Virus genome (UHGV): UHGV-1558314
Length of the DNA stretch: 64,000 bases
Source of the DNA: a virus
Strand: one strand, 5' to 3'
Shown here: positions 4,301-42,172 of the stretch, piece after piece
How the letters are laid out: every line of letters begins with the position of its first letter
Numbering within the stretch: the first letter of the stretch is position 1
Position numbers and translations under genes: made by a program
The notes under the pieces: model-generated
Databases searched by the model: none
What the model was told of the DNA's origin: nothing
The model's input: the letters and a program-made list of their open reading frames with translations, nothing else

Positions 4301-7300
4301 TTAGAACAGAGCAATGATGTTGTCAACAAACATAAAGCACTTTTGCAGCAATTCAGCTGTCGGCGTCATCTCATATGCTTTGCCATCATACATAAATCGC
4401 ACAGTGACAATGGGTGACACTTCGTCTTTGAATGCAAGCACAGGAACATCTACACCTGCAGTCAATTGCACTTCAACATCCTTGTCAGCTGCTACATCTT
4501 TAGCAATCACTGCAATATCTTGACAACGACCAGCAGCTACTGCATATCTAACGTTTGTCAATGTAGCAGACATGTCAGCAAGAGCTTGCATGATTTGCTG
4601 TTGAGTAAATTGCTCAACCGACTTCTTTGCAGCCTTGACAGCTTCGATATCTTGCGTATTTGCAAGAATCAATGCTACCACTGCAGGGTCAGAAGTAGTC
4701 CACCAACGACCATCAATTGCAAGCCACAGTCGATTGCCATTGACGTCAATTGCATATGCATATTGAGTGTTTGGCGCCAATGTGACTTTTCGAGTGTTCT
4801 TTAAGAACTCTGCTGCATCAGGTGCTGCAACAATGTTCTTGACAAATGACGGCAGCATTTCAGCTTCAAATGTTTGTGTAGCTTCAAAGACACCGCCACG
4901 TGCATCGTCATCAATTCTGCCTGCAAAGCGTTTGCAGATTTGAATGATTGTAGCCATGCCTACTGTTGGAACGACTTGACGTTTCATTGCAGGCATTTGC
5001 AGAGGCATTGTATCTTGCGCAATGTACAATGATGTCGCATCAACAGTGTCAAGTACTCGTGCAATGTCTGCAGTATCAACAATTACAAACCAGTCGCCAT
5101 CATGGCAGACAATGAGTTGCTTGCTGTCATTTGCATATGTCAGCAATACTGCAATGTCATTTTTGATTGAGATTGCAGGAATCCATGCTTGTTGCAGAGG
5201 TAAGTCAAGATTTGGTGTGCCGCATGGATAAAGCGCAGATGGCTGCATAATTGAGCGGCAATCAAAACCTATTGAACTTACAAGCTGCAGAACTTCGCCA
5301 CGAATGCAAGCATTACTTTGATTCTGTGTCATGTCATATGCAAGCCAACTGCAAATTGCTTTGATTGATGACACTGGAAATGCTACGCCAATTGTGCTGT
5401 ATGCAATCTTGCCGTCTGCTGACAATGACTCATCAACTGCAATGCCAGCATCATTGAACAATGACATATCAATTGAACAATGGAATTCGCCACCAGGCAT
5501 TGGACCTGCAGCAATGCCATAGCCATGACCAAGTGACAGCCATTCTTTCATTGCATCTGAATTGTATGACGAGAACTTGTACAGCACATATGACTTATGC
5601 GGGTCACTAACTGACTTGCGAATCTCCATCTTGGCGCCTGCTTTCTTTGCAATTGCTTTAATGTTATCGGCATGCTTTTTTGCCTCAGACTTGTCAAATT
5701 TGCCTTCATCAAGTTGAGCAATCTTGCCAAGCGCATAAGCAGTCCATGCAATTAACAATTGATTCAGTGCACCAACTTCTGACCACGACTTTTCTGCAAA
5801 CCATGAGCCAAGACCAGATTTGTCAAGGGTTTCTTTGCGTTCAGCTTTTGTTGTGCTGTCCCACCACTTGCCAGTCGCAGGCAATACAATGTCTTTGATT
5901 TGCTCCTTACGAAGCTCATTGACACCAATTTTGCCCTCATGAACATGCGCATTTGCATGATATGCTCTAAGAGCAGCCAACGCAGCATCATATGAGTCAT
6001 AGTCTTGCGGCCAGAATTCCCCATTCTTGCCAATGATGCCCCATACACCCTTTGACTTTTCTTGGATGACAGAGTCTTTGTCACCGGCAGCTTCATTGAC
6101 AAATGCCGTGTTAAGATATGCAATGACATGCTGAAGCTCTTTGTCGTCTGCAGACTCATTGACGTTCTTAGCGTAATCACCAAGAATTGATTCAACTTTG
6201 CCACGCAAATTGCTTGGCATATCATCAAGGTCAAGATTGCCGTACTTCGTAACTTCTGGTTGAGACAATCCAAGCAATTTCAACACCTTATCGCGGTACT
6301 TATTTGCAAGCTTCTTCCAAATCCAGCGGAATGTTACAGCGCCAATCAAGAATTTGATGAGGCCCTCATCAAGTACATGTTGTTCACGCAAATATGCTGT
6401 AATGCATGAACGTTGACCATCAGTCAAGTCAACCCACATTTTATCAAGCAATATTGAATCTGGGTTGCTTGCAATGCCAGCGCCGCTGCGGTTGTACACA
6501 TTCATTCTGTCAATTGCTGGTGTTGCGTCATTGTCCCACCAAGCTTGTGCATATGAACATCCAGCAGGATTTGAGATTGCTTCATTAATGTACATGACAT
6601 TGAAGATTTCGCAAAGACGCTTGCGACATTCAGGTGACATAACTTGCCATTGTGTTGCAATTTTGTCTTCTGACCACTGCAACAGCATGTCTGCAAATTC
6701 TTTACCTGCGCATTGCTCAACTGCACCATGTTTCGAACGCCAATAATTGTCAGGCTCAATTTGTGCAATTGCATGAACAAATGAAGTCAGATTGTATGAC
6801 GCAGATTCGCAAATGCAATGCTGTTCAATGTAGCTACGAACAGCAAGTGCAGTGTCTTCCGGCAAGTTGCTATATGGTGACTCATAGATGTTTGCTTGCT
6901 GATTGAGCATATGTGGAGCAACTTCTGCAATGATTTGTTTGCGAACATTCAATGGCCATGCATTCCATGAAGATTCTACAGATTCATCAAGATGCATGCC
7001 AATTGCATCCATAACTGCATCAGCATCTTTGCCCGACAGTTCGTCAAACAATTTGTCTACTACTGCATAATCATATCGCAAATTTGGCTGAGCCTTTGCA
7101 AGAGCGTCCATCATTGCTTTGCGTTCTTGTTTTGACGCATTATTCCATGTGCCAGCATACAATTCTGCTGTCGCGCTTTCACAGACAATATCTGCAGCAG
7201 CATATGCTTGCTTCATAATGTCCATGAAGATTGACTTCATTTTTGGATGCATCACATGATACTTTTCATTGTAGATGTCAAGTACGCCATAAACATCTTT

Positions 7301-23474: not shown

Positions 23475-24494
23475 CTATTGCTTATGCCAGCCATATGATG
23501 CCTGACCAGCATCATACACTTCTACAAAACCATGGTCGTACATAAAATCTTCATTACGAGTGCCCTTGCCCCCATTAGTACCAAGAATACGGTCTGCACC
23601 ATGCATAAGCAGCATATTATTTGTGATATGTTGCTTTGTCAGCATATTGAACCAATGTTTGCTATATGACAAGCCAAGACCATCAAAGCCCAGCTTTGTG
23701 TACACGCCACCATCAAACTTGCTCAAATCACAATACGACAACACAGATTCAGGGTCATATGTCTTGATAAAGTGCTTGAATATGCGTTCGGCGCCACCTA
23801 CGACTTTTGTTGCTGCACAAAGACGCAGTAGTTCATACTGATATCGCTTATTGTATCGTGGACGACCAAATGTCATAAGCTGATGTATGACATAGCCGCC
23901 AAGCAATTCAAGTGGATGGCCTTCAATCAACGCAAGATTGATAAAATTGCCTGAGCACTTGCCTTGCAAATGATGTTCAATCAAAAATTGATTTGCAGTA
24001 TACTTGTCAATTTCAACAACTTTAAGCTTGCGAGCATATACAATCTTTGATTTGTCTACGATTTGATGCTTGATGTGATTGATAACTTTCTTGGCGTCAT
24101 CCCAATCCCACACATGAATGCAATGAAAGCCTGCAGCTTTTGCAATGTCTGTTTTCTTTGCATGAATATCACAAGGCAAATGCGAATCTTTTGCAGCATG
24201 CATAAATAGATGCTCAAATGAATGCGTGCTATTATGTGAAAATGTGGGATTGATGTTGATGACGATGTTGTCATGTCTAAAATCGAAGACTTCATCACCA
24301 ATAACAAAGTTGCGCTCAAAATCTATACCGACATGTTTGAGTAATACTTGATGCCACACATCTTTATAGGCTGATTCAAGATTGCTTAGCTCATCACAGT
24401 TTGCAATATTTTTGTAACGTTGAATAGCAGCATCAAAGTCAAGATTGACTTCAGCGTAGTCTGCATTTTTATCGTAGTGAAATTTTGAGCTCAT
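23475..24494 (-). CDS. Homing-endonuclease-like protein, family paralog 1 (Vsr/DUF559-like nuclease motif)
   Basis: IVININPTFSHNSTHSF ... GFHCIHVWDWDD and C-terminal VEVYDAGQ shared with paralogs; ATG at 24492-24494. Confidence 0.75.
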   Translation of the reverse strand: MSSKFHYDKNADYAEVNLDFDAAIQRYKNIANCDELSNLESAYKDVWHQVLLKHVGIDFERNFVIGDEVFDFRHDNIVININPTFSHNSTHSFEHLFMHAAKDSHLPCDIHAKKTDIAKAAGFHCIHVWDWDDAKKVINHIKHQIVDKSKIVYARKLKVVEIDKYTANQFLIEHHLQGKCSGNFINLALIEGHPLELLGGYVIHQLMTFGRPRYNKRYQYELLRLCAATKVVGGAERIFKHFIKTYDPESVLSYCDLSKFDGGVYTKLGFDGLGLSYSKHWFNMLTKQHITNNMLLMHGADRILGTNGGKGTRNEDFMYDHGFVEVYDAGQASYGWHKQ

Positions 24495-24515
24495 GTGTAT
24501 AATTTGTATGAGATT

Positions 24516-24544
24516 ATTGTACAACATGCAAATGCATGTTGCAT
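24516..24544 (-). promoter_or_regulatory. Sigma70-like promoter (ATGCAA-N17-TACAAT)
   Basis: Plus attgtacaac at 24516-24525, ttgcat at 24539-24544. Confidence 0.5.
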
Positions 24545-24598
24545 TTGATGCAAAGTACTGCGTACACAACATAAAGTACAAGTTTGCTTTTGACAGAC

Positions 24599-25966: not shown

Positions 25967-27682
25967 TCAAATCCAGCCGTAGTCGCTGTGGATAGCGAAG
26001 GTGAGGTAAGCCAACTCGGGATACATACCCGTCTCCGCGAGAGCGTAATCCGACTCAATCAGCAACTTTGGCGCTGCTGTTCCTTCGGCTGTTAATTCCA
26101 CACTTGATGCAAGGTCATATGGCATGAATACACATCCCTGGTTGACATTCTCTACGTCAACACCGTCAGCAGTCTTGTTCGTACGAAGAACGAGAACAGT
26201 GTTGTCGTTCAGCGGCTGCTTAGGATTGCAATAGATTTTAATGCCAGCAAGGTCACCTGCGTAATACAGGTTTTTGTTGTCCTGTACCAGCGTATTGTCA
26301 AGAGCTGCAACAAAGTTTTTCTGAGCCTTAATTGCAACCAAGGCAATCGTATTGACCACAGCAGCATCACCAGCACCGAAACGCGACAGGTTGCCAATGA
26401 TTGCCGAAGCAGCCAGGATACGCGTTGCGATACGAGCCTGACGGGTAATCTGGTTCTCAGCCGAGCTGTTCGATTCAGCGTTCGGAACCATGCCGAATTC
26501 AGCCGTACGGTCTACACCCATCTTGTCGACAAATGCAGGAGCTTGGAATTCCGAGAATGCCTTGGCAGTCGAACCAGCGTAGCCAATGTACAAGTTCAGG
26601 TTGTAGCCCTGAGCAGCCAACAGCTGAGCATGTGTCGTAACACCAAGTGCACGCATGCGCTTCAGACCATTGTCATTGATTGACTGCGTGATTTCATTCT
26701 GCATTGCATTCTTGATGATTGCAACTGCATCCAAACCGCGAGCACGGAGGTCCTTAACCTGGCGACGAGTCAGAGCGCCCCAAGTCTGGTACGTCTTAAC
26801 TTCGATAGCCTTTGAGAAGGTGCGGAGCTCCAGCATGTTCGGGTTGCCAGCCTCAGCCTCAGAACGAGACATTGGGTTGCCGTCAAGGTCATCCATTGCA
26901 GCGAAGCCGTGGATGTGTTCGTCACCAGCCGAAACCAGGTCGAACATAACCTCAGTCATACCAGTCAGCAAGTCAGTTACAGCACCTGCAGCGTCAACCG
27001 AGTAGATTTTCGATGCAGCCATTGCAACATCAGCCAACGACTTGTCAGGAGCAACAGTCATTGCGCCACCTGCGCCTACAGTGTACACGCCCTCATTGCG
27101 AACTACGAGGTAGCCTGCAACACGCGATACCTGTACAAACGTTACTTTGGCAGCAAGCTCACCAGCAGCTGAACCGCCGATGTACAGAACTTGACCCTTC
27201 TTGAGGCCACGAACCATTGTCTGCGAAGCAACATTGTACAGTTCCTTCCACTTGATGAGGAAGTAGCGAGGACCCTTGGCAACATTCAGCTTGCCGCCAC
27301 CATACACGTAGTCTACATAGTCCAGCTGAACCAGCGGGCTGTAAACAGGAATGGTCGGGAGCAGGTCGAACAGAATCGTGTTGGCTGCGATGTTCATGTT
27401 CAGAGCCAGAACATTGGCAGCTACATCGATTGAACCACGCTTACGCGACGGGTCATGGAACTGTGCTTGCGTGCCTGGGTCAGCAGGGAAAGCGACCGGA
27501 CCTACGCCATTGAGATTCTGCGAATACGTCGACTCAAACGACTCGTTCATATACTGAACGTTCTGAGCGATTGATGCGAGCAGATACTTCTTAGCGGGCG
27601 AGAGCTTGGAGTCAAACGACTCATCAAGAACAGGGCCCCACTTTTTCAGCAATGCATCAATCTGTGTACGTTTTGCGTTCAT
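25967..27682 (-). CDS. Putative major capsid protein (571 aa) with N-terminal propeptide cleavage motif
   Basis: Markedly GC-richer codon usage than neighbours; N-terminal ...NVQYMNE/SFEST matches the recurrent xNE motif; late-type promoter upstream; family assignment not verified. Confidence 0.7.
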   Translation of the reverse strand: MNAKRTQIDALLKKWGPVLDESFDSKLSPAKKYLLASIAQNVQYMNESFESTYSQNLNGVGPVAFPADPGTQAQFHDPSRKRGSIDVAANVLALNMNIAANTILFDLLPTIPVYSPLVQLDYVDYVYGGGKLNVAKGPRYFLIKWKELYNVASQTMVRGLKKGQVLYIGGSAAGELAAKVTFVQVSRVAGYLVVRNEGVYTVGAGGAMTVAPDKSLADVAMAASKIYSVDAAGAVTDLLTGMTEVMFDLVSAGDEHIHGFAAMDDLDGNPMSRSEAEAGNPNMLELRTFSKAIEVKTYQTWGALTRRQVKDLRARGLDAVAIIKNAMQNEITQSINDNGLKRMRALGVTTHAQLLAAQGYNLNLYIGYAGSTAKAFSEFQAPAFVDKMGVDRTAEFGMVPNAESNSSAENQITRQARIATRILAASAIIGNLSRFGAGDAAVVNTIALVAIKAQKNFVAALDNTLVQDNKNLYYAGDLAGIKIYCNPKQPLNDNTVLVLRTNKTADGVDVENVNQGCVFMPYDLASSVELTAEGTAAPKLLIESDYALAETGMYPELAYLTFAIHSDYGWI

Positions 27683-27770: not shown

Positions 27771-29060
27771 TCATTTTTCAATCTTTTTGAGCAATGCATG
27801 ACCGCAATCATAGACTTCGACGAAGCCTGAAGCAATCAATGAGTCAACATCTATAGAAGACGTTCGTATAATATGTTCGTGTGTCTTGATATTGTATAGA
27901 TGACACTGAACCCATGTTTTGACGACTTCATAATTTGGATACAATCGAGGGTCTTCTTTTGACAAATCAAGTTCTATGACATCATCAGTTTTGAGCTGCT
28001 CAGTTTTGTTTATGACATCTCTAATGTGCAGCAACATATCATATCTACAATCCCAGTCAAATATTGTTATACATCGATAGCCATTGCGTGCTGCAACATC
28101 TGTTTTGAATTTGTGAGCATACGCAGGTTTGGCGTCATTATCAACAGAATGCCCAGTTATGTAACCAAAGCCCTTTGTTGCATTGTGTGTAACAGTTGGA
28201 TTGATTTCAATTACAACAGCATCTTTTCGCAAATCATATAACAAGTTCTCAATAGGATGCTCAGTAACAAAATCAAGATTGCAAGAATGTTTCAAATCCC
28301 ATTGCCACGACATATTGATGTTTGATGTCAACCTTGCAGATGCTTGCGGCAATTGCAATGCATGTTCTACACCATAGCGTTCACGTAATGTTGCATGAGC
28401 CCTTTGCATATTTTGCATTGCGGGACCCCAATGCTCAAATTTTGTAGCATTTATCTTTGCAATTTTGTCTGGTAGCTTATTTGTACTATCTACACCATAT
28501 TTAATAAGACAACTGATGCGAATATTGTATTGTCGTTTTATTCGAGAATGTGACGTAGCACATCTACTAAATCGTTCAAATGGTGTTGATGCAATCAATG
28601 CATCTCGTTCTGACTCAAGAGCTTTGACATGTTCAAGCACTTCTGCTGGTACATTATCATAGTCAATCACATATTGCTGACGTGGTTGCGTTACATGAGT
28701 TTTGCCGTGTGTCTTAAGCTTATTGATTTGTATGCTATACTTTCTGCGTATATGTGGATGTCTTGATGCATCAGATTGCGCAATTTCATGCTCTCGTTGC
28801 TCTTCAAGTTTAGCTATTTGCTCAACAATAGCTGGTTCAATGTCTGGTTTGTCTGATATGACTATGTTTTTAAGCTCATCAAGACGCTTGTTGAGATATT
28901 TGACACGTCTTGTATATGTTATCTTTGCAACTTGATGGTTTGTATGATGCTTGCCTACTTGCTGTTCTGGTTGATTCAGCGTGTCATCAAGGCGTTGCTT
29001 AGCGAGCTCAAATTCATTATCAAGCCATGCTTTATGCGCATCAAATTCATCTTGTGTCAT
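27771..29060 (-). CDS. Homing-endonuclease-like protein, paralog 3
   Basis: VVIEINPTVTHNATKGFGY ... GYRCITIFDWDCRYD ... VEVYDCGHALL. Confidence 0.75.
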   Translation of the reverse strand: MTQDEFDAHKAWLDNEFELAKQRLDDTLNQPEQQVGKHHTNHQVAKITYTRRVKYLNKRLDELKNIVISDKPDIEPAIVEQIAKLEEQREHEIAQSDASRHPHIRRKYSIQINKLKTHGKTHVTQPRQQYVIDYDNVPAEVLEHVKALESERDALIASTPFERFSRCATSHSRIKRQYNIRISCLIKYGVDSTNKLPDKIAKINATKFEHWGPAMQNMQRAHATLRERYGVEHALQLPQASARLTSNINMSWQWDLKHSCNLDFVTEHPIENLLYDLRKDAVVIEINPTVTHNATKGFGYITGHSVDNDAKPAYAHKFKTDVAARNGYRCITIFDWDCRYDMLLHIRDVINKTEQLKTDDVIELDLSKEDPRLYPNYEVVKTWVQCHLYNIKTHEHIIRTSSIDVDSLIASGFVEVYDCGHALLKKIEK

Positions 29061-29125
29061 ATGTGTGTGTAGTGCTTGTTAATCATGTTATATATCATAT
29101 GACAAATTACTACTTTGCATATAAC

Positions 29126-29159
29126 AAAAAAGAAGCCAAGTCGTTTTGACTTGGCTTCA
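29126..29159 (-). terminator. Rho-independent terminator
   Basis: aaaaaa gaagccaagt cgttttg acttggcttc. Confidence 0.6.
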
Positions 29160-29189
29160 AATTATTCTAACTTATTGATAGTTAATAAG

Positions 29190-29765
29190 TTAAAATTGAG
29201 AACCTACGACACGTGGCACTGCAAGTTCGCTGGTAAGAACGGCTTGACAAGTGTAAATGTCGTCACTATTCTTGTCATGTGAATCGACTGCGCTGATAGG
29301 ACCCTTAGGGAATCCATTCTTGTACGACGTTACTCTCCAGGCTGTTCCAACCTGATTATTTTCAACGAGAATCCAAGAACCCACATAGTTTTTCTTGAGA
29401 CCCATGGCTCCCGTGAGAGGATTCCTGCGTTTCGCATTCCAACTTTGGAATGCATTGTAAATCACAGGGTCATTGGTGTCTGGTCCATGCAAGTTCAGAT
29501 TCATTGTGATAGTCAGGTTGTGAATGTTGCTGACTGTCAATGCTGAGAACTGACGAGACTGATTTTGCGCAACTTTTTGTGAAACCACATCAGGCGCATT
29601 GTCAAGTGTGCCCAAACCTGAAATTGACTGAATTTGCTCATCAATTGTATCTGGAATCACAACGCCTGCAGGTGGCATAAGTGTGAGCTCGAACAATGAA
29701 CTGAACACGGGTTCAGCATATTCGGCAGTCACTTCGCTGTTTTTGATATGCGGTAACTTCGGCAT
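29190..29765 (-). CDS. Hypothetical protein (191 aa); possible tail tube protein
   Basis: Size and position near sheath-like gene; weak FELTLMPPAGVV resemblance to gp19-type tubes; tentative. Confidence 0.55.
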   Translation of the reverse strand: MPKLPHIKNSEVTAEYAEPVFSSLFELTLMPPAGVVIPDTIDEQIQSISGLGTLDNAPDVVSQKVAQNQSRQFSALTVSNIHNLTITMNLNLHGPDTNDPVIYNAFQSWNAKRRNPLTGAMGLKKNYVGSWILVENNQVGTAWRVTSYKNGFPKGPISAVDSHDKNSDDIYTCQAVLTSELAVPRVVGSQF

Positions 29766-29806
29766 GATTGTAATGTGTTATTAAATTGTTCTTGTTTTGT
29801 TATGCG

Positions 29807-30556
29807 TCATCGTACAGTGAATGACTTATCATCATCTTCTGTAGTAGTCGGGTCATCAATTACATCGTGGCCAATGCCTGACTCTGGTTCTGGTTCTGGT
29901 TCCGGTTCCGGTTCCGGTTCTGGTTCTGGTTCCGGTTCTGGTTCCGGTTCTGGTTCCGGTTCTGGTTCCGGTTCTGGTTCCGGTTCTGGTTCAGGTTCTG
30001 GTTCCGGTTCCGGTTCTGGTTCTGGTTCCGGTTCTGGTTCCGGCTTGGGCTCTGGCTTGGGCTCTGGCTTGGGCTTCGATGAATAATCAAACATCTTATG
30101 AATCCATTTGCACCACCATTTGCGACATACATGTGTGCCATCATGATAATACGCTTGCAGCTCCATTGGAATTGCATGATATGCTTTGTCATGTGACATA
30201 CCTTTGAATACTCGCAAGTACACATAGCACAAGCAATATGCAATGTAGTACATAAGCGGTGATGCAAGCAGCCACCACCAGCTAAGCACATTGCATGCTG
30301 CAAGCACAATAAGTACAAGCAACGTCGCAAGTGTTACGAAGATGAATTGCTTTGCATGCACAGCTTCATGCTTCAATGTCTCAGAATATCTACTAAGTGT
30401 GTCATCATATGACTTATCACTTCTTATGAAGCACATTGCACACAACGACATTGCATAATAATGTGAAAATGGAATGTATGGCTGGTCGATGACAAGCATT
30501 GGTCCAGCAAACCACAGTCGCCACTGAGATTTCTTTGGCAGTGTTGCAGTTTTCAT
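29807..30556 (-). CDS. HExxH-motif membrane protein with C-terminal (KPEP)/(PE)n repeat tract
   Basis: [10 protein letters not shown] followed by hydrophobic helices; C-terminal about 60-aa PE repeat encoded by the hexanucleotide SSR. Confidence 0.7.
29884..30074. repeat. Hexanucleotide microsatellite (GGTTCY)n about 30 units plus (GGCTTGGGCTCT)n
   Basis: Direct reading of ggttctggttccggttcc...; encodes (PE)n on minus strand. Confidence 0.9.
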
Positions 30557-30619
30557 AAAATGATGTTTATTGTTGATGATGAAGACTGAAGAGCTTTGGC
30601 TCTTCAGTCTATCAATTTG

Positions 30620-33457
30620 CTACTCTGCAGATGCGCCTTGCAGTGACAATGTTGTACGATGTACACCAATTCGAATGCCTTGAGCATTGATAATTTCAGT
30701 GTCAAGTACAATGAATCCGCGAGCAATCGTTTCATCATCATTGTTGCTGCTATCACAGACATTCGTGTACGAAACTGCGCCACCGGCTGCAACGATGCCA
30801 TCCATGAAATTGTCTGCTTTAGTCTTAACCTGCAAACGAACATTTGCAGTGTTTCGCTTGTACTGGGCAGACTTCAAGTATGGCTCGATGTTGTCAGCGA
30901 CGTAGATGAGCAACTCGAGATTTTCGATGTAGCTGAATGCGCTGGTGTAAGCTACTTGTGCAGAACGAGATGTCAGCATTGTGATGACGCCTTGGTCTGA
31001 ACGAGCAAGCATATTCCAACCTGCAGGTTCAAGGTCATCCATATCAGACCCTTCACCTTGTGAGACAATCATGTCAATGTCGGTTACGCCAACACCAGAC
31101 AGTGGCCACTCATCACCAGCAACGACGTCAAAGACATGCTTGCCTGCTTCTATATGCTTTCTCATGAAGACATTCGACAAGATACCTGTTGCAGGAATCG
31201 TCATATCATCAATGCCATCATTGTAGCGAACATTGGCTACATATGTGATGAACGGTGCGCCATCAGTTTGACCTGCGAAGCTGAACAACTTGCTGTATGG
31301 TTTATCGGTGTTACCACCTGCAGCACAGTACTTAGACTCAATTGGGTCACCTGCATTGTCCTTGAAGTACGGGTCAGTTGAGCGGAACAAGTCATACTTG
31401 GTTGGCAGAGCAGAGAATGCGATTGCACGTTTTGAATCATTGCAAATCTTTGCAAACTCGTACTTTTGATTTGCTGCAATGTATGTCTTGAATGGGTCAA
31501 CTACGTAACGCCATTGACATTGATTGTGGTCCATCAAGCTACGATAAACGCCGCCTGAAATGAGAGCTTGCAGTACTTCTGTCTGACGTGCAGATGTGCC
31601 ATCAACAAATTGAGTTGCACGAAGAGCTACGCCATGCAGATATGCGCCCTTGAAGAACTTAACTTGGTCAACAAGCTTCGTCAATGACCAAACAGACGCC
31701 TGCGAGGCGTACTTCATCATTGAGCCATCTGCAAGTTCAAATTCGCCTTCAGCACCCGCAGCTTTGTATGCCAATGCACCAGTGAATTGATATTCAATCA
31801 ACACTTTGTTTTCTGCAAATGCATCGTAGACATTCTTCTTCTCAAGTGGCGACAAATCAGCTTCAGTGATTGTGATTGGCATGCCACCATACTTGAGCGG
31901 CTTATCCAACGGCAGACCATTAGAATCATATTCAACAAGGTCACCACCATATGAAATTGTCTCACCTGCAGCTCTTGCTTTACGAGCTTTCGTTGATGAA
32001 GTTTCTACATCTGCAGACTCTTCGCCGCCAATTGTGACTGTTGAGCCTTGCGGATAGATGAAGTTGCCCTTTGCATCCTGAGGGAATGCAACCTTTGCAC
32101 CTGATTCGTCAATGTACATTGGAATGCCGTCTTCCTTGCCAATGACAGGAACTGCGCGATATTCAGCTACAACTGCGCGACTTGTGCAGCGTACTGGTGA
32201 ACCATCAGCGCCAATGAAGATGTCGCCAAGTGAAATTGGCAACACTGGTGCAACAAATGAAGTCTTTGAAGCTTCACCTGGCTGCACAAATGGAACCATC
32301 ACATTAACAAACTCAGATGACACGAAGTCCTTGAGCTGTTCTTTTGTGATTGCGACATCTGTTGCTGTTGGCGTGCAGTCAATCTTTTCAGGATTGATGT
32401 CAGTTGACGGACGAGCCATGCCAAGATATTGATGTGTAGCATCATCAGCAAACAATGGACCCGCAGCTTCATCTACAGAAATGTAGTTCGAACCAAAGAT
32501 GTCCACTGCACGTTGGAAACGAGCGTCTTCAATGTCATTTGAATTGTAGAACTCGTCAACCTTGTCAGGGTCAATCTTACACATGATACCTGTCGTGTCT
32601 GACACTGCATTCACAGCAGTTTCCAATGACAGTTTGTTGCCATTGATATCAAGCAAGTCAGGAATCAATGAGCCAGATACACGACCCATGTAGCCAGATG
32701 CTGCAAGCTTTGACAGTGCCTCAGGACCATACATGCCATCAACTTGTGCACGGATGCCATCCTTTGTGAAGTACTTGCCATATACAGTCGAACCTGCAAG
32801 TGATTCATAGTTCGTCAGTTTTTCAGAGAAAAACCAAACATCAACCATATAGTCTGACACAAGGTCATTGCAGTTCACGCCGGGTACATACATTGATGGG
32901 AAGCGGTCTTGAACTGACTTGATGTCATAATCATAGCCAGTCAATGTTGTCGGCGTAATGAAGATTGTTGCAGACTTGTTTGTAAGTGTTGAGAAGTTGA
33001 GCAGCTGTACGGGGTCAGCGCCAACAGCATTGAGCAGATTCAATGGCTCAGCTTTCCAGAAGTTTGATGTATCATAGACATCCTTAAATGGAACGTCTAC
33101 AGGTGAGCCATCTTCTCCTGAGCTGTTTGCAGCAAAAGTCACTCGTGACAACACATCGCTATCATTGAATGAGCGCAAGTTCAACACAAGAATTGGGCTT
33201 GTTGCAAGCATTTGCTCTGCAATGAGACCAGCGAAACAGCCGGCACGCTCCAAACGCTTGTCACGTTGACCGAAAATTTCATGCAGCTGGTCTGCATCTT
33301 CAACAAGCACGGCGCGATTGACCGGACCGTTCTTCCACTGGCCTGGCAGCAATCGAAGTGTTTGAGCGGGCAGTGAGTCAAGGTGACTTGCGTCAATGAA
33401 CAGACGATATGTCCCGACTGACTTGAACCGTTCAAATAAAGAAGTGTTATTTGCCAT
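30620..33457 (-). CDS. Putative tail sheath protein (946 aa)
   Basis: N-terminal GQWKNGPVNRAVLVEDADQLHEIFG resembles sheath motif; ATG at 33455-33457 (MANNTSLF); late-type promoter; tentative. Confidence 0.65.
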   Translation of the reverse strand: MANNTSLFERFKSVGTYRLFIDASHLDSLPAQTLRLLPGQWKNGPVNRAVLVEDADQLHEIFGQRDKRLERAGCFAGLIAEQMLATSPILVLNLRSFNDSDVLSRVTFAANSSGEDGSPVDVPFKDVYDTSNFWKAEPLNLLNAVGADPVQLLNFSTLTNKSATIFITPTTLTGYDYDIKSVQDRFPSMYVPGVNCNDLVSDYMVDVWFFSEKLTNYESLAGSTVYGKYFTKDGIRAQVDGMYGPEALSKLAASGYMGRVSGSLIPDLLDINGNKLSLETAVNAVSDTTGIMCKIDPDKVDEFYNSNDIEDARFQRAVDIFGSNYISVDEAAGPLFADDATHQYLGMARPSTDINPEKIDCTPTATDVAITKEQLKDFVSSEFVNVMVPFVQPGEASKTSFVAPVLPISLGDIFIGADGSPVRCTSRAVVAEYRAVPVIGKEDGIPMYIDESGAKVAFPQDAKGNFIYPQGSTVTIGGEESADVETSSTKARKARAAGETISYGGDLVEYDSNGLPLDKPLKYGGMPITITEADLSPLEKKNVYDAFAENKVLIEYQFTGALAYKAAGAEGEFELADGSMMKYASQASVWSLTKLVDQVKFFKGAYLHGVALRATQFVDGTSARQTEVLQALISGGVYRSLMDHNQCQWRYVVDPFKTYIAANQKYEFAKICNDSKRAIAFSALPTKYDLFRSTDPYFKDNAGDPIESKYCAAGGNTDKPYSKLFSFAGQTDGAPFITYVANVRYNDGIDDMTIPATGILSNVFMRKHIEAGKHVFDVVAGDEWPLSGVGVTDIDMIVSQGEGSDMDDLEPAGWNMLARSDQGVITMLTSRSAQVAYTSAFSYIENLELLIYVADNIEPYLKSAQYKRNTANVRLQVKTKADNFMDGIVAAGGAVSYTNVCDSSNNDDETIARGFIVLDTEIINAQGIRIGVHRTTLSLQGASAE

Positions 33458-33560
33458 GTTCGTTATCGTATTTGTAAATTGTGAAATGTTGCTTTGTTTG
33501 ATTATAACTTGATATATGTATGTATATGATGACATCAAACATGTTGTTGACCAAAATCAA

Positions 33561-33611: not shown

Positions 33612-36600
33612 TTAGCCACGAATCAAGTCAACCAAGCGTTGCTGTTCAGGAGTCAATGACGACTTTCCACTGCCATCAACGTTTTCGTTAACGAAACCGA
33701 CTGGCTGCTTAGTCGAATATGACTTGATTGCAGCCCAGTTACGTGAACGATAGAATGCTGCGACATCTGACTCATTTACGAAAGTGCGAACTGCTGCCTG
33801 AGTAGCAATCAATGACTTCTGTTCAGGAGTCAAGCTTTCATAAATGTACTTGTATGCTGTTGGCATGTGCTTCAGATACAATGGCGTATGGTCAATTGGC
33901 TGCAGATTCTCATCCAAGACTGCCACACCTGCAGCATCATAGCGAGTTGCAAGCTGCTTTGTTTGACGACGCAATGCAGCAATTTCATGCTTGATGTTTG
34001 TCAAGCATTCATCTGTTGCTTGCGCGCCAAGATATGTGCGAAGCATATCAGACAGCATCTTCTGATTTGCGTCAGTCAAATCACCTGCGACTTCGATGCC
34101 AGTCAGCTGGTCATCCTTACTGATGACTACAGAAATTGTAGAGCCATCACGCTCAACTGTGCGGAAGTCAAAGTCATCATATGACTTATCCTTAAGAACA
34201 GCTTCACGAATATTGTCATCTACGCCTTCATTGACCATGCTCATGCATTCCTCAACATCTACGTCAAGTCCAAGCTCTTCTGCAGTTTCAGCAATCTTTT
34301 CTGCAAGTTGAGCTTTGTTTTCAACTTTGTCGAGGTCTGCTGCATCTGATACAGCATCGACAAGTTCATCTGCCTGTGCACGAGTAATCGTTGAAGCATC
34401 AACAAGGCCATCAATGATTTGCTCTACATCTGCAGGCGTCGGCTTATTGTCTTCTGTAGCTTCATTGATAAACTTAGCAGTCTTTGGCTTGTAGCTAAGC
34501 TTGCCCTCATTAACCATCTCATCCTGCAATTGTGCAGCGATGTATGCAATCAGCAATGACTTGTTGGCTTCAAGTTCATCGACTGCTTCAGCAGACTTTT
34601 GAGCTTTGATGAGTTCATCGTAAGCTGCTGCAACTTTGTCATCCATCGTAGACTTGTCAGGGTCAATGTTTTTGATGCATGTCTTGACAATGTCATCCTG
34701 ATAGAACTTGTCAATGATTGACTTGTCAGTGTCAGAGTACGTTGCATACAGCTTGTCAGCAACAATTGACTCATTGACAATCTTGCCAGGCTCAGATGCA
34801 GGAACAAGAGTCCACTTACCATCAACTTCTGCAACAATGCCTGATGTCGATTCACCATAAGTGACTGTCAGACGAGTACCAGCTTCATTGTTATCAATTG
34901 TGTTGACGACTGCTTCGAATTCATTGCCATCTGCATCATAGATTTTGATGTTGTCACCGACAGCAGCTTCATCTACTGGTGCTTCGAAGAACTCTTTGAC
35001 AAAGTTCTGAACATCAACGGGCAGACTGTCATATGGCTGTGATGCATAGTACTCTGAGTCAGCGTCAAGGTAGTTCTTTGACAGCAGCCAAGTTTTTCGA
35101 GCAGCAACATCTGCAGCATTCCAAGCATCGACTGACTCATCGCAGTCATCAACAAGTGCAAGATACTCAGGGTCTTTCTTGTCATCAAAACGAAGAGTAA
35201 ACTTTTGCTCGGGCTTGCCAGCAGGCCAAACTTCGACTTCAATTTTTGTAGTGCCTGCAACATTTTTGACTGCGCCTACAACAATCTTGTCGCCTTTGTT
35301 GATGCCATTAGACATGTCGTATGGTGCTTCAATAGATTCATCTGTCGACTGTGCTCGAATTGCAGCTGCAATAGCGTTACGAGATTCATTGTCAAACATC
35401 TCCCATGTAGCATTTGCAGCATCTTCTACGCCAATCTTGTCTTTGCCAATCTGCTCAATTAACTGATTGCGGTCAGCTACTGAAGCATTGTACCACCAGT
35501 CTGCTGCAGGGTCAGAAGCTTCATCAAGCGCTTTGACAGTTTCATATCGACCGTCATACAGCATGTACTTATCACCTTCTTTGATGGCTACAGACTCCTT
35601 GCCATTGTACTTGAATGACACTTTGTCTTCATTGAAGCCAGTCAATTCAGCTGTGATTTTGTCACCGTTCTTGTCATAAACTTCGACAGTTTGTGCTTCA
35701 TCAATGTTCAAGTGCTTCTTGAGTGCATCTACAAGTTCTTTGCCAAGTGCATCTTCATTGTCATGAGCATGTTGGAAGCAATCTTCATCTGACTTATCAG
35801 GCTGAACAGCTTTCAATGCTGTGGCACGATTGAGCATTGACATTGTGCCCCAGATTGATACGAAGCTTTTGCCCTCATTGTCTTGTGCTTTGGCTTCGTC
35901 AATTGCATCAATGTCTTTCTCAAGCATTGCATGATGAGCAATGTCGATGCCAGCCCATTTCGTCTTTGCATTATATGGCAAACCAATATGCTTCGACAAA
36001 ATTGACTGACGCTGGTCATCTGTGAATGAATCCCAAGCTTCGCCAAGTGTTGCATGCTTTGCTTCATCAGCAGCAAATTCAGCTTCAATCTTGAGTTTGT
36101 GGTCCTTGTCAATCAGTTGCCACTTGGCATTTGGACGATAAAACTCAGACAATGACAGCTTGTCAAGAATGACTTTGCGTTCGTCATCTGACAATTCGTC
36201 CCACTTGTTGTCAGCAGATTCATCGATGTTGACGAGTTCTTTCTCAATGAGATTCTTGTCAAGCATTGCATCAATGATTGGCTGCTGGGCTTCTGCTGGA
36301 ATGTCTTTGAACGACTTAATTGCAATGACAGCGTCTTTGTCATCAACTTTAGCAGCTTCAACAATTTCTGTCTTCACTTCATCAGTCAAAGCGCCCCAAG
36401 CAGCATCGAGATAATCAAAGTTGAGAGCTTCATCACATTCAACAATGCCATACTGCTTTGCAATGTCATTGTGCTTGTCAAGATTGCTGTCGAGTTCAGC
36501 TTCAATTGCTGCTTTGATGTCATCAATTGACTTATCTTCAACTTCAAACTCAAGAGCTTTTGCAAATTCAGTCAATGCTGCATCATCAAGCTTGCTAATG

Positions 36601-37562
36601 TCATAAGGCTTAGCATCTTCATTTGTGAAGTCAATGCCAAGCAAAGACATTGCTTGTTTTTTGTTTTCTTCTGAGAGTGCATCGAATGCAGTTGCAAGAC
36701 CGACATCGGTATAGTCACACCCAACTTCGTCAAGCAATGCTTCGACTTTCTGGATGTTTTCTACACCAACTTCATTAGCATCAGCATTGTTGTATGCCTC
36801 AATAAAACGTGATTGGTTTGTCATGGTAGTGAAATCTTCTATTGATTCGTTTATGAGTTGCTGTTTGAGTGCATCCAATGATGCTGAGCCAATCAATGCA
36901 TCAGGGAATAGCTTCTGCAACATGCCTGTACGTGCAAGCTCAATCAATTGGAGCATCAATGAGTTTGGCGAGTCTTCGTCATCTACAGATTCACAAATGA
37001 GAGTGTCTTTTGATTCATTAACTGAACCGACAAGATTGAACTCTGCTTCAGGAAATGACGGCTCGCATACTAAATCGTATGTAATCAACTTTAGTAGAGT
37101 CGTTGCACCTGTAGTAGGATTAACTATACCAAGAGCTCGACTTGATACAAACAATGGTGAGCCTGCAGCCACAACTGCCCATGCAATACGACCTGCTGGC
37201 GTATCAAGAATAGTAATCCAGCCTTCAAATCGTTGCTTATCAGGATTCCATTCAATACTGTCAATGCGGTGTGATACATTCCCATACTTCACAGTACGTC
37301 GCTTAACATGCTCAAGCTCGCCAAATAGACGCTTAGCTTTGATTGCTGATTGCAATGTTTGTACTTGCGCAAAATAATTTTCGAAATTGTATGTTCGACC
37401 ATTACGATTACGCTCGCCAATAGTTGCATATGTACCGAACAATCTACCAAGCGCGCCACTTGGCACATGTTCATCTACAGCTTCAGCAACAAATTGACAA
37501 TCCTGGCGGCTTTCTATAATAAGCTGCGCAGGCTTGCCTTTGTATGTTATTGGTTTTGCCAT
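33612..37562 (-). CDS. Prohead protease (T4 gp21 / S77-like) fused to a long acidic scaffold/internal-protein-like region (1316 aa)
   Basis: N-terminal NGRTYNFENY ... LFGELEHVKRR ... SHRIDSIEW ... ILDTPAGRIAWAVVAAGSPLFVSSRALG ... YDLVCEPSFP; downstream GSVNE, LINESIED, MSMVNEG, KFINEA, KIVNES, TFVNES, GFVNEN. Confidence 0.8.
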   Translation of the reverse strand: MAKPITYKGKPAQLIIESRQDCQFVAEAVDEHVPSGALGRLFGTYATIGERNRNGRTYNFENYFAQVQTLQSAIKAKRLFGELEHVKRRTVKYGNVSHRIDSIEWNPDKQRFEGWITILDTPAGRIAWAVVAAGSPLFVSSRALGIVNPTTGATTLLKLITYDLVCEPSFPEAEFNLVGSVNESKDTLICESVDDEDSPNSLMLQLIELARTGMLQKLFPDALIGSASLDALKQQLINESIEDFTTMTNQSRFIEAYNNADANEVGVENIQKVEALLDEVGCDYTDVGLATAFDALSEENKKQAMSLLGIDFTNEDAKPYDISKLDDAALTEFAKALEFEVEDKSIDDIKAAIEAELDSNLDKHNDIAKQYGIVECDEALNFDYLDAAWGALTDEVKTEIVEAAKVDDKDAVIAIKSFKDIPAEAQQPIIDAMLDKNLIEKELVNIDESADNKWDELSDDERKVILDKLSLSEFYRPNAKWQLIDKDHKLKIEAEFAADEAKHATLGEAWDSFTDDQRQSILSKHIGLPYNAKTKWAGIDIAHHAMLEKDIDAIDEAKAQDNEGKSFVSIWGTMSMLNRATALKAVQPDKSDEDCFQHAHDNEDALGKELVDALKKHLNIDEAQTVEVYDKNGDKITAELTGFNEDKVSFKYNGKESVAIKEGDKYMLYDGRYETVKALDEASDPAADWWYNASVADRNQLIEQIGKDKIGVEDAANATWEMFDNESRNAIAAAIRAQSTDESIEAPYDMSNGINKGDKIVVGAVKNVAGTTKIEVEVWPAGKPEQKFTLRFDDKKDPEYLALVDDCDESVDAWNAADVAARKTWLLSKNYLDADSEYYASQPYDSLPVDVQNFVKEFFEAPVDEAAVGDNIKIYDADGNEFEAVVNTIDNNEAGTRLTVTYGESTSGIVAEVDGKWTLVPASEPGKIVNESIVADKLYATYSDTDKSIIDKFYQDDIVKTCIKNIDPDKSTMDDKVAAAYDELIKAQKSAEAVDELEANKSLLIAYIAAQLQDEMVNEGKLSYKPKTAKFINEATEDNKPTPADVEQIIDGLVDASTITRAQADELVDAVSDAADLDKVENKAQLAEKIAETAEELGLDVDVEECMSMVNEGVDDNIREAVLKDKSYDDFDFRTVERDGSTISVVISKDDQLTGIEVAGDLTDANQKMLSDMLRTYLGAQATDECLTNIKHEIAALRRQTKQLATRYDAAGVAVLDENLQPIDHTPLYLKHMPTAYKYIYESLTPEQKSLIATQAAVRTFVNESDVAAFYRSRNWAAIKSYSTKQPVGFVNENVDGSGKSSLTPEQQRLVDLIRG

Positions 37563-41053: not shown

Positions 41054-42172
41054 TCATAGTAATGATGCTTGTAAAATGTCTATAATGTGCTCATCAGTTT
41101 CACATAAATCTGTATCACTTATTATGCAATATGCAGACAATTCAGTAGATGCATTAACATATGCAGTCATTGCAGCAGCTTTTGCTATGACTATATCATC
41201 ATGCAGCCATTTAGCAGGCTTTATTTCAACAACAATTTGCGCGTTATTAAAATGCACAACAAAATCCGCGATATATACATGTGTAGCACTATTGAACACA
41301 TACTTACACCTTGCAGTTTCTATTGAATAGTGTAACTTATTGCGTTCACAAAAGTGTATAAATTTGCGTTCATTGTTTGAACGAAACGACGCTTTAGCTG
41401 ATAAACAGTATTTTGCAGTTTGAACATAGCCTCTCATGCAGTTCATAAATGGCTGCAATGACATTATGTCTCGACCATTTAACAATGCTCTATGCTGTGC
41501 TTCTGCACGTCTACGTTTAACTTCTGGTTTAGCATCTGTAATTTTGCGAGTAGCACGTATACGTTCTTTAACACCAGGTCGAGCCATGATTGCTTTTGCA
41601 GAAGCACTTCGATGCGCATGTGTTTCAGGCCTTGCGTTAGCAATTAGCATCCCATGCAATTGAGTGTCTTTAACTTCTTGACGCTGCATTGCTATTCGAG
41701 TGCTCTGTGAAATCTTTTGCCTAACTGCAGGATTTGACATTGCACGTTTTGCGCGTTCTGACGCCTTTACACGTAGTTCTGTATTATTTGCATACATGGC
41801 ACGTTGAGTATTACTAATTTTGGTGCCAATGCGTTGTTTATATTCTGCATCTGCAAAGTATTTTGCATTTCTGCATGCATGACTGCAAACATCGCCGTCA
41901 CCATAGCCACGTGTTACACACCACCATGTTAATTGCTTGCCACATATAGAACATGTTGGGATATCTGAGTCATCTTTAATTTCACATAGATATTTGTCAT
42001 ACCATTGCTTCAATGAATAGCCTACAATAGGTTCAGCCTTTCTACTAAAATACGTGCTAAATATCCATGTATCAAGTTCAGGCACGTATAACTGAAACTT
42101 TGTACGTGTTATTTGCTTAACAAATTTGTCCCAATTCTTAGCGGCATTGCGCTTAGCGTCTTCAGCAGTCAT
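41054..42172 (-). CDS. Zinc-finger / tandem-repeat DNA-binding protein with C-terminal PD-(D/E)xK nuclease domain (homing-endonuclease-like)
   Basis: CSICGK...CSHAC; four to five about 17-aa repeats (KISNTQRAM, KASERAKRAM, KISQSTRIAM, SASAKAIMA); YIADFVV...QIVVEIKP. Confidence 0.7.
   Translation of the reverse strand: MTAEDAKRNAAKNWDKFVKQITRTKFQLYVPELDTWIFSTYFSRKAEPIVGYSLKQWYDKYLCEIKDDSDIPTCSICGKQLTWWCVTRGYGDGDVCSHACRNAKYFADAEYKQRIGTKISNTQRAMYANNTELRVKASERAKRAMSNPAVRQKISQSTRIAMQRQEVKDTQLHGMLIANARPETHAHRSASAKAIMARPGVKERIRATRKITDAKPEVKRRRAEAQHRALLNGRDIMSLQPFMNCMRGYVQTAKYCLSAKASFRSNNERKFIHFCERNKLHYSIETARCKYVFNSATHVYIADFVVHFNNAQIVVEIKPAKWLHDDIVIAKAAAMTAYVNASTELSAYCIISDTDLCETDEHIIDILQASLL

Follow-up and report, generated by a model that had tools for sequence, protein, structure and literature searches.

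What kind of protein is encoded by a gene that lies between the tail sheath gene and a tube-like gene of a large phage, specifies an HExxH motif next to two hydrophobic segments, and ends in a tail written by a hexanucleotide microsatellite? The question is raised by an open reading frame (ORF) of 249 amino acids (aa) on the minus strand of UHGV virus genome UHGV-1558314, of which a stretch of 64,000 nucleotides (nt) was analyzed at its full length (the window, with its features collected in Table 1); the stop codon of this ORF, 29807..30556, is at 29807-29809. The analysis establishes that the protein is a lineage-specific variant of an uncharacterized phage family that resembles known membrane gluzincins, and that it carries a coding microsatellite. 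The reading that we favor, with a confidence slightly better than even, is that of an accessory inner-membrane gluzincin-like protein in which a slippage-prone rigid tether presents a conserved C-terminal peptide.

Tandem Repeats Finder places the main tract of the microsatellite at 29883-30040, with a period of 6 (26.3 copies) or of 12 (13.2 copies, 92% matches, score 267), and a second tract at 30042-30075 (period 12, 2.8 copies, 100%), and finds only this one large array in the whole 64 kb. A scan for (GGTTCY)4 with at most one mismatch recovers 23 overlapping positions, all in 29886-30041, against 0 in 100 dinucleotide-preserving shuffles; the longest perfect tract measures 71 nt and has a 12-nt period. 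A sequence-only reading of the locus had estimated about 30 GGTTCY units encoding a PE/KPEP linker on the minus strand, and both points are borne out: 26 pure units and 6 related hexamers can be counted, and they lie in frame within a real, constrained gene, where they encode 12 residues followed by (EP)26 and ES, i.e. 33 dipeptides or 66 aa. Two other ORFs that overlap the array, a (GS)n ORF at 29775..30086 on the plus strand and an NRNQ-frame ORF at 29860..30330 on the minus strand, were rejected as by-products of the repeat because only in the PE frame is the repeat flanked by conserved protein sequence at either end. Comparing four DNA alleles in every pairing gives a ratio of nonsynonymous to synonymous polymorphism (pN/pS) of 0.06-0.21 outside the repeat; the non-repeat part is under purifying selection and the gene is functional. 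The linker itself has no secondary structure in a full-length AlphaFold2 (AF2) model, with predicted local distance difference test (pLDDT) values of 74-85.

The length of this linker is strikingly variable between strains. A library of 5.8 billion proteins contains just one close cluster, whose four members measure 193, 205, 209 and 227 aa, and scans of viral and metagenome collections added one locus each, encoding proteins of 231 aa (an IMG/VR contig) and 219 aa (a metagenome contig); a scan of genome contigs for relatives found none, and a nucleotide search with positions 29000-31500 against 50,697 phage records gave no match. Across the resulting seven alleles, three of which (P0002-P0004) were compared as protein sequences, the linker comprises 66 aa in the window, 48 in L002, 44 in P0004, 36 in L003, 26 in P0001/L001, 22 in P0003 and 10 in P0002. 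The flanking 552 nt are 94-97% identical between alleles and the length differences are confined to the linker, with all seven alleles in frame and ending in an identical tail. The expectation of frame-keeping length changes in multiples of 6 is thereby upheld by seven lengths in seven related alleles, and repeat length is anything but invariant across isolates. In being polymorphic in length among close strains the array behaves as a simple-sequence contingency locus, but it differs from the on/off phase-variable kind, whose unit is not a multiple of three, in having a unit of 6 or 12 nt and all alleles in frame.

Beyond their copy number, the arrays differ in the positions of the KP interruptions within the EP run and in their synonymous proline codons, for instance a CCA/CCG alternation in the window as against CCT/CCG in L002. 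Given these two kinds of difference, comparison of the arrays points to independent expansions, as opposed to the trimming of one ancestral array. The differences also bear on the suspicion that the lengths vary only through misassembly of a low-complexity repeat, which would draw on the origin of the contigs in short-read metagenome assemblies (e.g. those with k141 megahit names) and on the window's array, which at 193 nt is beyond usual read lengths. However, six of the seven arrays span just 30-144 nt, within read or k-mer reach and short enough for reliable assembly, no allele departs from the frame or from the common tail, and interruption positions and codon choice differ as well as copy number; we regard this explanation as very improbable. 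A more distant relative (84% identity in the tube-like protein) has a (PD)n(PE)n stretch at the same place, before the same tail.

The N-terminal domain (N-domain) belongs to the PHROG family phrog_15610, labeled 'protease', which is matched with an E-value of 1.9e-7 by the 249-aa protein and of 5.4e-8 by the N-domain; 45 of 46 homologues match the same family, the best with E = 3.3e-34. An exhaustive phmmer scan of 1.8 billion representatives recovered 113 relatives at E<1e-3; nearly all of them stand alone, have 105-155 aa and cover residues 20-156 in the alignment. They share this size and stand-alone state with typical phrog_15610 members, whereas the His/Cys cluster, the long spacer and the conserved tail are additions found only in the phage clade of the window. 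The family consensus (alignment A1) runs IPFxGYxAM..FxR..NHExIHxxQxxE, followed by a hydrophobic hairpin with an SxWW turn and by AYxxISFExEAY. Within it E64, H67, Q70 and Y107 are invariant, and H63, Y126, E132 and A135 are found in at least 90% of members; the window protein has all of H63, E64, H67, Q70, Y126, E132 and A135, with its HEAVH sequence (aa 63-67, nt 30356-30370 on the minus strand) on a long helix. At the level of motifs, HExxH combined with an ExxA helix is the gluzincin pattern, with E132 as putative third ligand of the zinc. NHExIHxxQ and FExEAY likewise occur in a member from the crAss-like phage ctbg_1, AXH74547.1, which is annotated as a 'putative Zincin superfamily protease'. 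The true start codon of the window gene may be M20 (ATG at 30499) instead of M1, since family members and distant orthologues start at the position that corresponds to M20. The 19 codons upstream of M20 (30500-30556, minus strand) are conserved in close alleles and modeled with low confidence.

Outside PHROGs the family has few anchors. Neither the protein nor its homologues could be assigned to a family by Pfam, NCBIfam or PADLOC, and the libraries searched contain no experimentally characterized phrog_15610 member. Pfam M56/M48 gave no match for the protein, nor for the 46 homologues at E<=0.1, and a sequence search of the PDB with the family profile returned no M56 match, only a spurious one to Frizzled at E 5.5. 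The HExxHxxQ string resembles that of DUF4157, an HExxH domain associated with contractile injection systems, but DUF4157 (PF13699) is absent from the matches at E<=1 for the protein and at E<=0.1 for the 46 homologues. Pfam matches to PARP, Tmemb_185A and FA_desaturase were set aside as products of compositional or hydrophobic bias. The family phrog_15610 comprises uncharacterized, widespread and minimal membrane-inserted HExxH proteins, for which Pfam has no model and which occur in phages that infect Bacteroidota of the gut and of the environment, crAss-like phages among them.

Structure prediction and comparison with known enzymes provide further clues to the nature of the N-domain. An AF2 model built with the family alignment (pLDDT 85.5, predicted template modeling score 0.79) has strands in residues 13-45 and helices at 54-87 and 93-117 (helix pLDDT 96-98). 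A Foldseek search against the PDB returned Staphylococcus aureus BlaR1 as all four of its top matches, with non-significant E-values, and a BFVD fold search returned uncharacterized phage proteins only. In the model of MecR1, a re-entrant hairpin (residues 213-243) with the turn IFWFNP lies between HExxH and ExxxD, and the zinc site is at the cytoplasmic face (PMC6925264). The window protein has the same element order as BlaR1/MecR1 (M56), its hairpin (aa 71-114, turn SWWWLLASP) lying between the HExxH helix and the Glu helix and hence between H67 and E132. Unlike them, it is much smaller, has only two hydrophobic segments without extra N-terminal transmembrane (TM) helices, and ends in a low-complexity linker and a 23-aa tail in place of the extracellular sensor domain. 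The likeness to HtpX/Ste24 (M48) is looser: hhalign of A1 against Escherichia coli HtpX gave a probability of 0.08 with only 10 columns around HExxH aligned, i.e. no M48 similarity. The minigluzincins (proabylysin, projannalysin and selecase) and the minimal zincins of the SprT/Wss1/Spartan type are soluble proteins whose third ligand is a His (PMC6925264), and differ from the window protein with its inserted hydrophobic hairpin and its ExxA second motif. On these comparisons the protein is best filed as a phrog_15610 member that resembles an M56/M48-type membrane gluzincin core in its architecture, without being a demonstrated member of those families; as a small membrane-inserted HExxH protein, it could serve as a model for membrane-embedded gluzincins. 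Of the earlier proposal of a metalloprotease, the conserved HExxH/ExxA motifs stand, and the best, though weak, fold matches are zincin metallopeptidases and not a non-protease fold; the protease activity itself is putative. It appears unlikely that the domain is no peptidase but a pseudoenzyme, or a scaffold for metal binding or for some other hydrolase, in which case phrog_15610 would owe its 'protease' label to a guess from remote homology.

The hairpin also allows a prediction of how the protein sits in the membrane. Both hydrophobic segments reach Kyte-Doolittle windows above 2.0 and there are no charged residues in the segments or the loop. Over 46 family members the loop holds a mean of 0.02 K+R as against about 2 in each 15-aa flank. 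Because the loop is uncharged, the flanks are K/R-rich, no signal peptide is present and a His/Cys cluster follows the catalytic core, the sequence predicts that both termini are inside (N-in/C-in) and that active site, PE linker and tail are all cytoplasmic. The periplasmic placement that had been suggested for the protein is at odds with each of these features. A more specific version of it would have both hairpin ends outside and the (KP/EP)n rod crossing the periplasm, so that the tail is displayed to the cell wall or the outer membrane. TonB indeed spans the periplasm with a proline-rich rod, the Glu-Pro/Lys-Pro dipeptide repeats, which would be expected to form an extended rod, are of the same kind as those of TonB and procyclin, and the longest allele, at about 20 nm, would be of periplasmic dimension. 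The match to the EP-repeat model of PARP (PF05887) is, however, compositional, with 40.6 bits against a cut-off of 100, the Pfam search revealed no TonB_C domain, and linkers that range freely from 10 to 66 aa between strains or are substituted by a coiled coil misfit a fixed periplasmic span. Together with the charge pattern, seen in all 46 family members, the missing signal peptide and the position of the His/Cys cluster, this makes a TonB-like arrangement improbable.

The part of the protein that follows the core is best understood by comparing the slot between the sheath and tube-like genes in related phages, anchored on the tube-like protein. In L013 (61% identity in the tube, 49% in the sheath) the slot holds a 255-aa family member, P0007, along with endonuclease-like genes, and in L021/L022 (tube 60%) a 252-aa family member stands directly upstream of the tube gene. 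In both proteins a coiled coil of about 90 aa replaces the PE repeat between a CxCx4C cluster and an acidic tail, although P0007 retains a short PAPEPEPDPDPENP stretch; matches of P0007 to LmuB/JetC were discounted as reflecting its coiled coil only. In the window protein the His/Cys cluster takes the form H-x3-H-x-C-x4-C-x3-H, as opposed to the CxCx4C of these distant orthologues. Within this cluster, sites 143 (V/I/A/T) and 145 (R/H/N), at window positions 30122-30130, vary across the seven alleles, which are otherwise about 96% identical, and may form a small hot spot of amino-acid change. The tails of P0007 and of the L021/L022 member align with that of the window protein, with H230 invariant and G227, D234, D235, E240 and V248 nearly invariant across the clade. 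Their conservation extends to proteins that have a coiled coil as spacer and to those with no spacer at all, as in L017-L020 (tube 65%), where an uncalled 85-aa ORF consists of hairpin and tail only (…GDGIAHMEIEADQPWEHEFEVH), without the beta-sheet, HExxH or ExxA; this ORF is intact in four strains, with a pN/pS of 0.3-0.8. The hairpin and the terminal peptide are thus the most consistently retained elements at the locus, and the allele series and the relatives' spacers indicate that spacer identity and length are free while these two are kept. Nature thereby offers a linker series of seven lengths in seven near-identical strains, extended by a coiled coil in distant relatives and by the lack of a spacer in one lineage.

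In L023-L025 (tube 59%) the sheath gene is followed directly by the tube gene and the slot is empty, while in phages pT24 and PAU it contains unrelated genes. As the slot is empty, differently filled or reduced in relatives, these gene orders indicate that the gene is ancestral to a sub-clade and yet dispensable. They also count against a virion-associated tail component or a tail-assembly protease. Such a role would accord with the position of the gene on the same strand as the sheath and tube genes, and apparently in the same transcription unit, and with the orthologues in the same slot of phages with only 49% sheath identity. The protein, however, is an integral-membrane one with two long hydrophobic helices, relatives whose slot is empty or otherwise filled still make tails, divergence of the N-domain (25-30% identity) far outpaces that of the tube (61%) or sheath (49%), and the family occurs outside tail modules in sipho-type and crAss-like phages, in replication, packaging and lysis neighborhoods. 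With the gene in a variable slot, a place in the virion, as entertained by the sequence-only reading, is hardly credible.

The contexts of the family elsewhere are diverse. Its members adjoin a dUTPase gene in a crAss-like phage, gp32-like and thymidine kinase genes, or an Lcl_C/bAvd pair of the diversity-generating retroelement type, and occupy a fixed post-terminase position in phages of about 36 kb from Bacteroides, Parabacteroides and Phocaeicola; no annotation among the neighbors of family members, those in Bacteroidales siphophages included, gives a functional clue. A prophage region (L010:2059-3964, in GCA_045546395.1) has the look of a lysis cassette, with a 2-TM ORF of 91 aa, a family member with HExxH and hairpin, a GH19 lysin and a DUF6808 protein that is anchored by its N-terminus.

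Such surroundings invite the idea of a lysis-related membrane protein, i.e. a holin, antiholin or lysis regulator, whose core would be the hairpin with the charged cytoplasmic C-terminus, and whose zincin domain and spacer would have a modulating role. Class II holins are N-in/C-in hairpins with a charged tail, a format that the window protein resembles and the 85-aa hairpin-and-tail derivative fits; in the prophage the family member lies between the 2-TM ORF and the GH19 endolysin, in L021 the coiled-coil orthologue follows a 1-TM ORF and a lysozyme at a distance of two genes, and the apparent co-transcription with late genes would suit lysis too. But the window protein, although it has hairpin and charged tail, extends to 249 aa with a conserved enzyme-like domain, the conservation of HExxH/ExxA goes far beyond expectation for a pore former, and the short members of the family, of about 110 aa, possess just one hydrophobic helix. 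Neither Pfam nor PHROGs yields a match to a holin family, the window neighbors are sheath and tube, lysin adjacency is confined to two homologues, many family members reside in replication or packaging modules without a nearby lysin, and the pN/pS of the 85-aa derivative is compatible with decay. A lysis role is therefore rather unlikely.

Returning to the gluzincin-like protein with a tether, the above observations suggest the following mechanism. The product would probably be a non-structural accessory protein that is expressed late. Residues 20-136 would form a minimal gluzincin-like metallopeptidase domain of beta-sheet, HExxH helix, hairpin and ExxA helix, with the hairpin anchoring it in the cytoplasmic membrane and both hairpin ends, and with them the active site and the entire C-terminal part, on the cytoplasmic side. 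Beyond the His/Cys cluster, (KP/EP)n would extend as a polyproline-II-like rod; the geometry of such rods is established, and its application here, at about 0.3 nm per residue, would give lengths of about 3-20 nm across the alleles. Replication slippage in 6- or 12-nt steps would expand or contract the rod, always in frame, and the tether could be built as a PE/PD rod or as a coiled coil. That 10-66 aa (about 3-20 nm) are tolerated implies a relaxed constraint on reach. At its end, the 23-aa acidic terminal peptide would probably bind a partner or substrate. This arrangement is reminiscent of FtsZ, in which a short conserved peptide at the terminus is carried by a linker whose length and sequence are free. 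In another respect it resembles the amino-acid tandem repeats (aaTRs) of Borgs, where fast-evolving in-frame nucleotide repeats give rise to perfect amino-acid repeats in membrane proteins (PMC9879509), except that here a single phage locus is concerned and not a whole genome. Autoinhibition by the tail, as in the minigluzincin zymogens, was also considered and is unsupported, since AF2 leaves the tail undocked.

A bolder version, which we consider improbable, is that of a BlaR1-like phage membrane protease with a rigid arm, built of PE repeats or as a coiled coil, whose C-terminal peptide captures a specific cytoplasmic host or phage protein at the inner membrane, with slippage retuning the reach. 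If true, it would, for example, time lysis or disarm a membrane-associated defense, and would constitute a heritable and quickly adjustable molecular ruler in a virus. Unless a substrate or phenotype is found, the understanding of phage biology is unchanged.

Several observations weigh against the favored reading and temper our confidence in it. Two Glu conserved in the family (in QxxE and YxxE) are replaced in the window protein, and as L017-L020 keep only hairpin and tail, the catalytic domain may not be the essential element of the locus. The topology is predicted solely from the positive-inside rule, and in the full-length AF2 model the tail has a pLDDT of 48-61 and no strand, and lies undocked. 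As to the repeat, the exact copy number in the window could be an assembly estimate, its array being longer than typical short reads, and the length variation is one between strains, as seen in contigs and proteins.

Table 1. Features of the HExxH gene, its surroundings and its counterparts in related phages (coordinates refer to the window unless a locus is named)
Feature	Coordinates	Strand	Basis or remark
HExxH membrane-protein gene with PE-repeat linker	29807..30556	-	ORF list and sequence; 249 aa
aa 20-70: four-strand beta-sheet (aa 20-45) and start of active-site helix, KHEAVHAKQ	30347..30499	-	
aa 71-114: hydrophobic helical hairpin (TM1 71-91, turn SWWW, TM2 93-114)	30215..30346	-	
aa 125-136: 'glutamate helix' with ExxA motif (E132, A135)	30149..30184	-	>=90% family conservation
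aa 138-153: His/Cys cluster, specific to this phage clade	30098..30145	-	Alignment A3, allele comparison
aa 161-226: 66-aa KP/EP linker, microsatellite-encoded	29879..30076	-	Tandem Repeats Finder, pattern scan, codon listing
aa 227-249: 23-aa acidic C-terminal tail, conserved	29810..29878	-	
Tail sheath, upstream neighbor	30620..33538	-	phrog_34521, E 2.9e-113; tblastn to pT24, PAU and Lak sheaths
Tube-like gene, downstream neighbor	29190..29765	-	phrog_32623; 32% to PAU gp92, 30% to pT24 gp133
gp23-type major capsid protein	25967..27682		Pfam Gp23, E 4e-11
12-bp RNA hairpin just after sheath stop, upstream of HExxH gene	30583..30610	-	Centroid -19.6 kcal/mol, z -3.5
Terminator-like hairpin and T-run after tube-like gene	29132..29158	-	Consensus scan, 11 pairs then TTTTTT
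Homing-endonuclease-like genes in the window	23475..24581, 41054..42172	-	
Homing-endonuclease-like genes in relatives	L013:2220-3389, L013:6434-7693, L018:4676-5674		
85-aa hairpin+tail ORF	L017:5708-5965, L018:5703-5960, L019:5700-5957, L020:5700-5957		

As a whole, the window represents the structural region of a T4-like myovirus of large size. Its genome comprises at least about 175 kb, and the same phage species is represented by two contigs, of 174.6 and 179 kb. In addition to the genes of Table 1 it encodes a portal, a prohead-protease fusion and a DNA end protector. The best relatives of the sheath are in Tenacibaculum phage pT24, Sphingomonas phage PAU, Chryseobacterium and Flavobacterium phages, and Prevotella Lak phages; the host is probably a member of the Bacteroidota. 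That the HExxH gene lies between sheath-like and tube-like genes is upheld for the sheath by its PHROG match. The label of the other neighbor is given by size and position, without a family or solved-structure match for a tube; its homologues PAU gp92 and pT24 gp133 are the genes that follow the sheath region. All three genes are on one strand, and the terminator-like hairpin after the tube-like gene apparently closes a sheath/HExxH gene/tube unit, in which the HExxH gene would be co-transcribed with late genes. The RNA hairpin between the sheath and HExxH genes may act as a partial terminator or mRNA stabilizer that sets sheath versus downstream expression. Its stem is conserved, with a CAAA loop in the window and UUCG in L001-L003, and L023, which has no HExxH gene, possesses a different hairpin at the same place (about 5925-5955).

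Some other genes of the region are also of note. In the 1316-aa product of 33612..37562 (minus strand) the prohead-protease domain (phrog_207, E 7e-34) is restricted to the first ~240 residues, and the other roughly 1,000 residues have no assignment. Between the tube-like and gp23-like genes, a 429-aa ORF at 27771..29060 (minus strand) has a weak match to DUF7487 and none among PHROGs; it is absent from L026, the relative with 84% tube identity, in which the capsid gene directly follows the tube gene, and is probably a mobile insertion. Homing-endonuclease-like genes (HNH, TnsA-like or rich in zinc fingers) are scattered through the structural module of the clade, and since some of them sit between sheath and tube, this slot appears to be an insertion hot spot.

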